A stretch of DNA of 64,000 nt, taken from Escherichia coli. GTDB taxonomy: Bacteria; Pseudomonadota; Gammaproteobacteria; Enterobacterales; Enterobacteriaceae. Each line of letters opens with the position of its first letter. The first letter of the stretch is position 1. Position numbers: made by a program. Positions 63,401-64,000 of the stretch are shown here, piece after piece. The stretch lies in NCBI RefSeq assembly GCF_041248615.1, contig NZ_CP158426.1, one strand, 5' to 3'.

Positions 63401-64000
63401 GCGTAAAGCGGACCTGTACGACAAAGTCAGCCAGGCGTTCACCGTCTTCCTGCCGGTACGTTCCGTTGGTGTAATGGGCGATGGTCGTAAGTATGACTGG
63501 GTTGTTTCTCTGCGTGCTGTCGAAACCATCGACTTTATGACCGCACACTGGGCGCACCTGCCGTATGACTTCCTCGGTCGCGTTTCCAACCGCATTATCA
63601 ATGAAGTGAACGGTATTTCCCGCGTGGTGTATGACATCAGCGGCAAGCCGCCAGCTACCATTGAGTGGGAATGATTAACAGCTAACTCATAGCAAATCAT
63701 TCCTATTCAGATGCCAACTCAACCCTCTGTTTTTGCAGAGGGTTTTTGTTTTTATGTATTCATTTCTATTCACTCTACACCATATTTTTCGGCGGTACAG
63801 GTGACGGTATTACCTTAAAGGTATACTCTCATACCGTCATGACAATGGTTTCTATACGGGTGAATTGTGCTTACCGATACAAAATTAAAAAACCTCAAGC
63901 CGCAGGACAAACTGTACAAGGTCTCCGATCGTGACGGGCTGTATGTAGCTGTGCTTACGTCAGGCACGGTCTCGTTTCGCTATGACTACCGTATCAACGG

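Follow-up and report, generated by a model that had tools for sequence, protein, structure and literature searches.

The guaA 3' end at the edge of an Escherichia coli chromosomal window as the probable left attachment site of a phiV10-like prophage

The window analyzed here is the whole stretch of 64,000 nucleotides from Escherichia coli contig NZ_CP158426.1, and its 3' end contains, in this order, xseA (on the minus strand), guaB, guaA, a spacer of 192 nt, and the open frame of an integrase. Comparison with sequenced genomes indicates, with a probability of about 96%, that the final 340 bases form the left attachment site (attL) of a temperate, short-tailed phage of the genus Uetakevirus (phiV10/epsilon15 group), present as a complete prophage at the 3' end of guaA. 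The features of the junction, including the core and the P' arm of the attachment site, are the following.

62097-63674, plus strand: guaA (GMP synthase), an open reading frame (ORF) of 525 aa, annotated as guaA in NZ_LT599825.1; the host target gene, intact after integration.
63660-63676, plus strand: attL core ATTGAGTGGGAATGATT, 17 bp, made up of the final four codons of guaA with their TGA stop, plus TT.
63677-63866, plus strand: P' arm of attL, the stretch of phage DNA that separates the core from int; its identity is 95.8% to the right side of the phage attachment site (attP) of phiV10, and 60% (background level) to the right side of the bacterial site (attB) of strain K-12.
63867-64000, plus strand: 5' end of the prophage integrase gene, codons 1-44; the full gene occupies positions 1439867-1441117 of NZ_LT599825.1 and encodes 416 aa.

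The integrase frame opens at GTG 63867 and leaves the window at position 64000; its translation, V(M)LTDTKLKNLKPQDKLYKVSDRDGLYVAVLTSGTVSFRYDYRIN, matches the peptide quoted in an earlier note on this DNA, which had recognized the N-terminus of a P4-type integrase running off the window. The frame read from the same GTG is also given as VLTDTKLKNLKPQDKLYKVSDRDGLYVAVLTSGTVSFRYDYRIN. An in-frame TGA is found at 63861-63863, directly 5' of GTG 63867, and the latter is therefore assigned as the integrase start. The promoter scan of positions 63500-64000 detected no sigma-70-like promoter.

Megablast of window positions 63400-64000 against complete E. coli genomes yields a 100% match to NZ_LT599825.1 (chromosome of E. 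coli NRZ14408), ending at base 1440000. The window corresponds to bases 1376001-1440000 of this record, and the sequence beyond the window was read from it; below, L001 denotes bases 1437000-1486000 of the record, the first 3,001 of which are window positions 61000-64000 (window coordinate = L001 + 60999). Here, the frame from GTG 63867 belongs to a complete gene of 1,251 nt that encodes a tyrosine recombinase of 416 aa, and chance can be dismissed as the origin of this ORF. Between int and yfgI the NZ_LT599825.1 annotation lists 50 protein genes and one tRNA, and it flags no pseudogene among them. The prophage thus delimited, between guaA and yfgI, has 39,592 bp. It begins with int, genes for a DUF1382 protein, an MT-A70 methyltransferase, PerC, an AlpA-like helix-turn-helix protein, RecT, and a PD-(D/E)XK nuclease; then come a repressor-like gene with a divergent Cro-like gene, and DnaT-like and P-like replication genes. 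The middle part holds small early genes, the small and large terminase genes, a Gp49-family gene and the tRNA on the opposite strand, and the portal, protease, and major capsid genes, followed by those for capsid cement and staple proteins, a T7 gp14-like protein, and further large internal proteins; the end comprises an accessory region, the tailspike, two holins, the endolysin, and an Rz-like gene. To the right of the prophage lie yfgI, yfgH, yfgG, and pdeF, which directly adjoin guaA in K-12.

The repeat search in L001 2400-42500 reveals an exact direct repeat of the 17-mer ATTGAGTGGGAATGATT at L001 2661-2677 (63660-63676 in the window) and at L001 42253-42269, with a spacing of 39,592 bp; the same 17-mer is present in the phiV10 attP and in the empty site of K-12. 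A repeat of this length may arise by chance in 40 kb, and the search gave another such pair; hence, the decisive evidence is the four-way comparison of the flanks with the K-12 empty site and the phiV10 attP. The left flank of attL (200 nt left of the core) is 97.5% identical to the left side of the K-12 attB, and its right flank is 95.8% identical to the right side of the phiV10 attP; at the right attachment site (attR), the left flank is 96.4% identical to the left side of the phiV10 attP, and the right flank is 95.5% identical to the right side of the K-12 attB. The crossed comparisons, taken as controls, give 58-60%. This pattern is the signature of a conservative, site-specific event in which the phage tyrosine recombinase joined attP and attB through the 17-bp core that they share and that overlaps the guaA stop codon. 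As phage and host have the same core sequence, GuaA remains unchanged.

The earlier note had placed a genomic island or a prophage at the guaA 3' end, extending beyond the window; it is the prophage that is found, up to yfgI, and its gene content is that of a phage, not of an island. The direct repeat of the guaA 3' end that the note proposed to look for at the far boundary is the second copy of ATTGAGTGGGAATGATT. The att site had been expected within 63675-63866; the core lies to the left of this range, overlapping it by 2 nt, whereas the range itself nearly equals the P' arm. Neither an integrase truncated without an associated island nor a frame ending within the window was found, the integrase being complete and the element present.

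The guaA 3' end, named in that note as an integration site, is indeed documented as such both for phages (PMC9782041) and for the resistance island GIsul2 (PMC9376610). Phage vB_EcoP_ZX5 integrates there, its attB, attL, and attR having been confirmed by PCR and Sanger sequencing, with a core attgagtgggaatgatt located 190 bp upstream of int and stated to be the attP of phiV10 and epsilon15 as well (PMC9782041). The 17-bp core of the prophage is identical to this published core, and the distance between core and int is the same, 190 bp (63677-63866). The phiV10-like phage of an O103:H25 outbreak strain (TL-2011b) was also inserted within guaA (PMC3293862). Thus, the element, the integrase, the att core, and the integration site are all already known from published work.

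The phiV10 and epsilon15 records both assign these phages to Uetakevirus. Of the prophage's first 24.3 kb, vB_EcoP_PAS61 covers 86% at 97.9% identity; the last 15.3 kb are covered for 79% by HEMP4 (96.4% identity) and for 70% by phiV10 (95.8%). The order of modules is that of phiV10, and the length, 39.6 kb, compares with 39.1-39.9 kb for sequenced free relatives. Phage phiV10 (NC_007804) shares with the prophage an integrase (Int) of 99.0% identity, an identical 17-bp attP core, the P and P' arms (96%), the gene order, and the structural and lysis regions (approximately 96-98%), and differs from it in the early accessory genes, the region of the O-acetyltransferase gene oac, and the tailspike. 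The best overall nucleotide matches are vB_EcoP_ZX5, vB_EcoP_PAS61, HEMP4, phiv142-3, and TL-2011b, which cover 80-86% of the first 24 kb at 97-98% identity and whose integrases are 97.8-99.3% identical to that of the prophage; here, the differences concern mosaic accessory genes and the tailspike, and TL-2011b has 44.8 kb. Phages epsilon15 and Tyrion, of the same genus, have integrases of 87-88% identity and an attP in which the 17-bp core, the terminator, and the arm motifs recur, but only about 78-82% nucleotide identity over roughly half of the genome, other hosts, and other serotype-conversion genes.

The integrase shows three Pfam domains: Arm-DNA-bind_3 at residues 2-87 (E = 8.4e-20), Phage_int_M at residues 113-190 (E = 1.1e-11), and Phage_integrase at residues 204-375 (E = 2.5e-19). 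The part encoded in the window, residues 1-44, falls within the arm-binding domain, and the N-terminal domain matches the solved arm domains of CP4-like integrases, 3ju0 and 3jtz; the phiV10 ortholog is annotated as cd00801 INT_P4. In the pairwise alignment with lambda Int, R238, H335, R338, H361, and Y370 correspond to lambda R212, H308, R311, H333, and Y342; K265 is proposed as the catalytic lysine, the alignment being ambiguous at this point. By its domain composition, the protein belongs to the P4-type tyrosine recombinases with an arm-binding domain, and it is complete. Along its entire length of 416 aa it shares 99.0% identity with phiV10 Int; identity is 97.8-99.5% with the integrases of ZX5, PAS61, HEMP4, TL-2011b, and others, and 87-89% with those of epsilon15 (87.4%) and SPN1S (both Salmonella phages) and of the Enterobacter phage Tyrion. 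Like lambda Int, it is a heterobivalent tyrosine recombinase with an arm-binding domain and the same catalytic residues, and its core is flanked by arms with repeated arm-type motifs (candidate sites in the prophage); unlike lambda Int, to which it is 20% identical in the catalytic domain, it is of the P4 type and targets the 3' end of a protein-coding gene. Related integrases are also seen outside sequenced phages: large Klebsiella pneumoniae plasmids (NC_021654.1, NZ_CP008829.1, and others) bear one that is 82% identical, and two E. coli 'plasmid' records of 41,027 bp, which may be free circular genomes of related phages, bear one that is 98.6% identical.

Two observations qualify the assignment to the phiV10/epsilon15 group. 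First, approximately 14-30% of the prophage (early accessory genes, the region corresponding to the phiV10 O-acetyltransferase, and the tailspike) is not covered by any single sequenced phage. Second, the score of the integrase with NCBIfam NF007246 (PRK09692 integrase domain family) is 147.8 bits, below the curated cut-off of 434 bits. The uncovered parts represent the mosaicism that is normal for this group, while the integrase is related to the NF007246 family and is not a member of it; no evidence contradicts the phiV10-like identification.

Many chromosomal P4-type integrases are remnants, so the element might be a decayed, non-functional prophage, or the integrase might stand alone, with no mobile element behind it. 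This is improbable: the integrase is of full length, 416 aa, with intact catalytic residues, the 39,592 bp fall within the size range of sequenced relatives, the att core is perfect at either end, no module is missing and no pseudogene is flagged, and the two 41,027-bp E. coli records from the plasmid collection are possible free circular genomes of phages with nearly the same integrase. A lone or truncated integrase in particular is ruled out by the 416-aa gene and the block of phage genes downstream of it. A complete phiV10-like prophage remains the preferred reading and, given its size, equal to that of free phages, and the absence of flagged pseudogenes in the annotation, we infer that it is probably still inducible.

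Another kind of element that might occupy this site is an island of the GIsul2 type, an integrative mobilizable element with sul2, CR2, and arsenic resistance. The insertion site of GIsul2 is GAGTGGGA, in the 3' end of guaA (PMC9376610), and this sequence is contained in the 17-bp core of the prophage. We located a GIsul2 copy in plasmid pAB3 (NZ_CP012005.1) with int (L009 31035-32237), alpA, repA/repC, trb, ars, resG, CR2, and sul2; its integrase is homologous to that of the prophage (54% identity over 396 aa, E = 7e-161), an AlpA-type gene lies next to int in both, and the pAB3 copy also has a terminator-like hairpin between the junction and int. On the other hand, GIsul2 is a mobilizable resistance island of 15 kb with other arm sequences and no virion genes, whereas between attL and attR a full phage gene set is found and repA/repC, trbJKL, ars, resG, CR2, and sul2 are absent; the integrase, 54% identical to that of GIsul2, is 99% identical to that of phiV10. 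The gene content refutes a GIsul2-type resistance island here, and we give this reading practically no weight. Given the same site and the homologous integrases, the integration module is common to the phage family and the resistance island, the prophage lacking the GIsul2 cargo. That the guaA site is shared with this sulfonamide-resistance island is useful context for tracking GIsul2, and is not new.

The spacer between guaA and int contains a terminator.

63721-63754, plus strand: phage-borne putative rho-independent terminator, a hairpin at 63721-63744 followed by a T-run; stem AACCCTCTG/CAGAGGGTT.

The terminator scan of positions 63500-64000 finds no other terminator-like hairpin. The integrase start lies 123 nt past the hairpin stem and about 113 nt past the T-run, in agreement with the distance of about 110 bp given in the earlier note. 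That note had taken the hairpin for the guaA terminator; this assignment has to be revised, since the hairpin lies inside the P' arm and is phage DNA, while the native guaA terminator is located 39.6 kb downstream, on the attR side (L001 42291-42322). The two terminators have an identical 9-bp stem (AACCCTCTG/CAGAGGGTT) and 84% identity over 32 nt, with fold energies of -16.5 kcal/mol for the phage-borne and -20.1 kcal/mol for the native one. The phiV10 and epsilon15 records both list a terminator at the equivalent site, and the hairpin is conserved in the attP of epsilon15 and Tyrion. It stands after the lysis genes in the free phage and after guaA in the lysogen. The P' arm would thus bring its own terminator, which in the lysogen would end the guaBA transcript and shield int from read-through, the native guaA terminator remaining with attR. 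Relative to the core, the two terminators occupy equivalent downstream positions. The shared stem suggests that the phage-borne terminator is a diverged copy of the host sequence, in which case attP would carry a version of this terminator in addition to the guaA 3' end.

Two modest readings go further. If the phage terminator does derive from that of guaA, it may be kept to restore termination of the highly expressed guaBA operon and to insulate int; not only the coding sequence but also the transcription unit would then be repaired by the phage. In addition, the guaA-specific module of Int and core is seen in phages, in GIsul2-type islands, and on large Klebsiella plasmids, so guaA may be a contested site at which these elements exclude one another. 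We consider these readings possible, at somewhat less than even odds. For work on guaBA expression, or on the mobile elements of this strain, the point to note is the phage origin of the hairpin that follows guaA.

The P' arm also contains two candidate sites for binding of the integrase arm domain.

63800-63810, plus strand: candidate arm-type integrase site GGTGACGGTAT, P' arm copy; a second copy of the 11-mer lies in the P arm (L001 42171-42181).
63831-63839, minus strand: candidate arm-type site in inverted orientation, ATACCGTCA (reverse complement of TGACGGTAT); one base differs in Tyrion.

In the attP rebuilt from both prophage ends, the 11-mer GGTGACGGTAT occurs once per arm, and its inner ten bases, GTGACGGTAT, are invariant in the attP of phiV10, epsilon15, and Tyrion. 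These three attP sequences, from phages of different hosts, keep the arm motifs and the terminator as well as the core and the flank to its left, although, with the overall attP identity as high as 87%, such conservation is weak evidence. In the epsilon15 record, binding sites for integrase and for integration host factor (IHF) are annotated at corresponding positions, as is a terminator. We infer that GGTGACGGTAT and the inverted TGACGGTAT are candidate arm-type integrase sites.

The accessory content of the prophage bears on yet another reading, a defence island with anti-phage systems as its main cargo. The features concerned are given below.

L001 11368-11976, plus strand: unannotated ORF of 202 aa in a 667-bp gap of the RefSeq annotation; matches HNH endonuclease families (phrog_1271, E = 4e-23), with a weak ZorE-like HNH match.
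L001 34532-37150: position of the phiV10 oac gene; in the prophage, it is occupied by a DUF4760 gene (phrog_2284, of unknown function) and, besides the Ant gene, by three small unknown ORFs.
L001 36626-36810, minus strand: C4 antisense RNA (66 bits) and isrK Hfq-binding RNA (67 bits), both by Rfam, just upstream of the BRO-N/Ant anti-repressor gene.

The PADLOC scan of 21 accessory proteins reveals matches of two methyltransferases to the MTase_II and orphan-MTase models and the weak ZorE-like match of the HNH ORF, and the accessory region contains unknown genes, e.g., that of the DUF4760 protein; so far, this would agree with a defence island. At the same time, PADLOC gives no match for the eighteen other accessory proteins, in particular none for the DUF4760 protein, the three small ORFs, or the Ant protein at L001 34532-37150; no restriction partner adjoining the methyltransferases is present in the annotation; and the HNH ORF matches HNH endonuclease families of phages. 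When a phage encodes a methyltransferase without a partner, the enzyme usually serves to shield the DNA of the phage itself against restriction. A defence island is, hence, very unlikely. No complete known defence system was detected by PADLOC among the 21 accessory proteins, and no resistance gene is annotated in the prophage in NZ_LT599825.1, so that the defence or resistance cargo envisaged in the earlier note was not found, and a resistance or defence island was rejected on gene content together with the PADLOC scans.

Several further genes of this phiV10-like prophage can be characterized. The AlpA-like gene matches phrog_66, 'excisionase and transcriptional regulator', and is likely to encode the directionality factor, which makes it the candidate excisionase (Xis) gene of the prophage. 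The region of C4, isrK, and Ant, which takes the place of phiV10 oac, looks like a control region of the P1/P7 immI type in a phiV10-like phage. The literature search on DUF4760 found nothing useful. The tRNA was found by Rfam and is tRNA-Arg(TCT) according to ARAGORN.

We also surveyed the occupancy of the site in 5,426 complete E. coli genomes. The guaA-yfgI junction is uninterrupted in 4,463 of them (82%), the attL query including int is matched over at least 80% of its length in 567 (10%), and in approximately 395 (7%) the site is interrupted in some other way. One of these remaining genomes has a sibling prophage with different accessory genes. Another, E. coli TB06052 (NZ_CM129848.1), shows at the guaA-yfgI junction a 3.9-kb insert without an integrase (L011 9160-13100), with two DUF262 genes whose proteins match the PADLOC HEC-06, Orf5, and SspE-like models; its guaA ends in ...GAGTGGGAGTGA, and the DNA that follows contains CATGGCATTTTTCATGGTAT, which resembles the phage P arm. 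This insert may be a remnant of another element that used the same att site. The guaA 3' end is a moderately used integration spot in E. coli. Beyond correct annotation (the window end as the boundary of a phiV10-like prophage, with the att core inside the last guaA codons), the significance of the locus is small.

Elsewhere in the window, sinH, encoding an intimin-like inverse autotransporter (45004-49769), is split by the IS21-like element ISEc12 (istA/istB at 46431-48733); a SinI-family gene and an adhesion-domain gene of 8,043 nt (50922-58964) lie downstream of it. The yphB pseudogene has an internal stop and adjoins a copy of the IS3-like element IS1397 (4585-5933), the whole region spanning 3635-5933; yfhR (14515-15368) is frameshifted. 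Between timP and sseA there is a lone gene of an 'integrase core domain-containing protein' (transposase-like, 25867-26913), and timP itself, a small toxin gene adjoining it, is located at 25495-25620.
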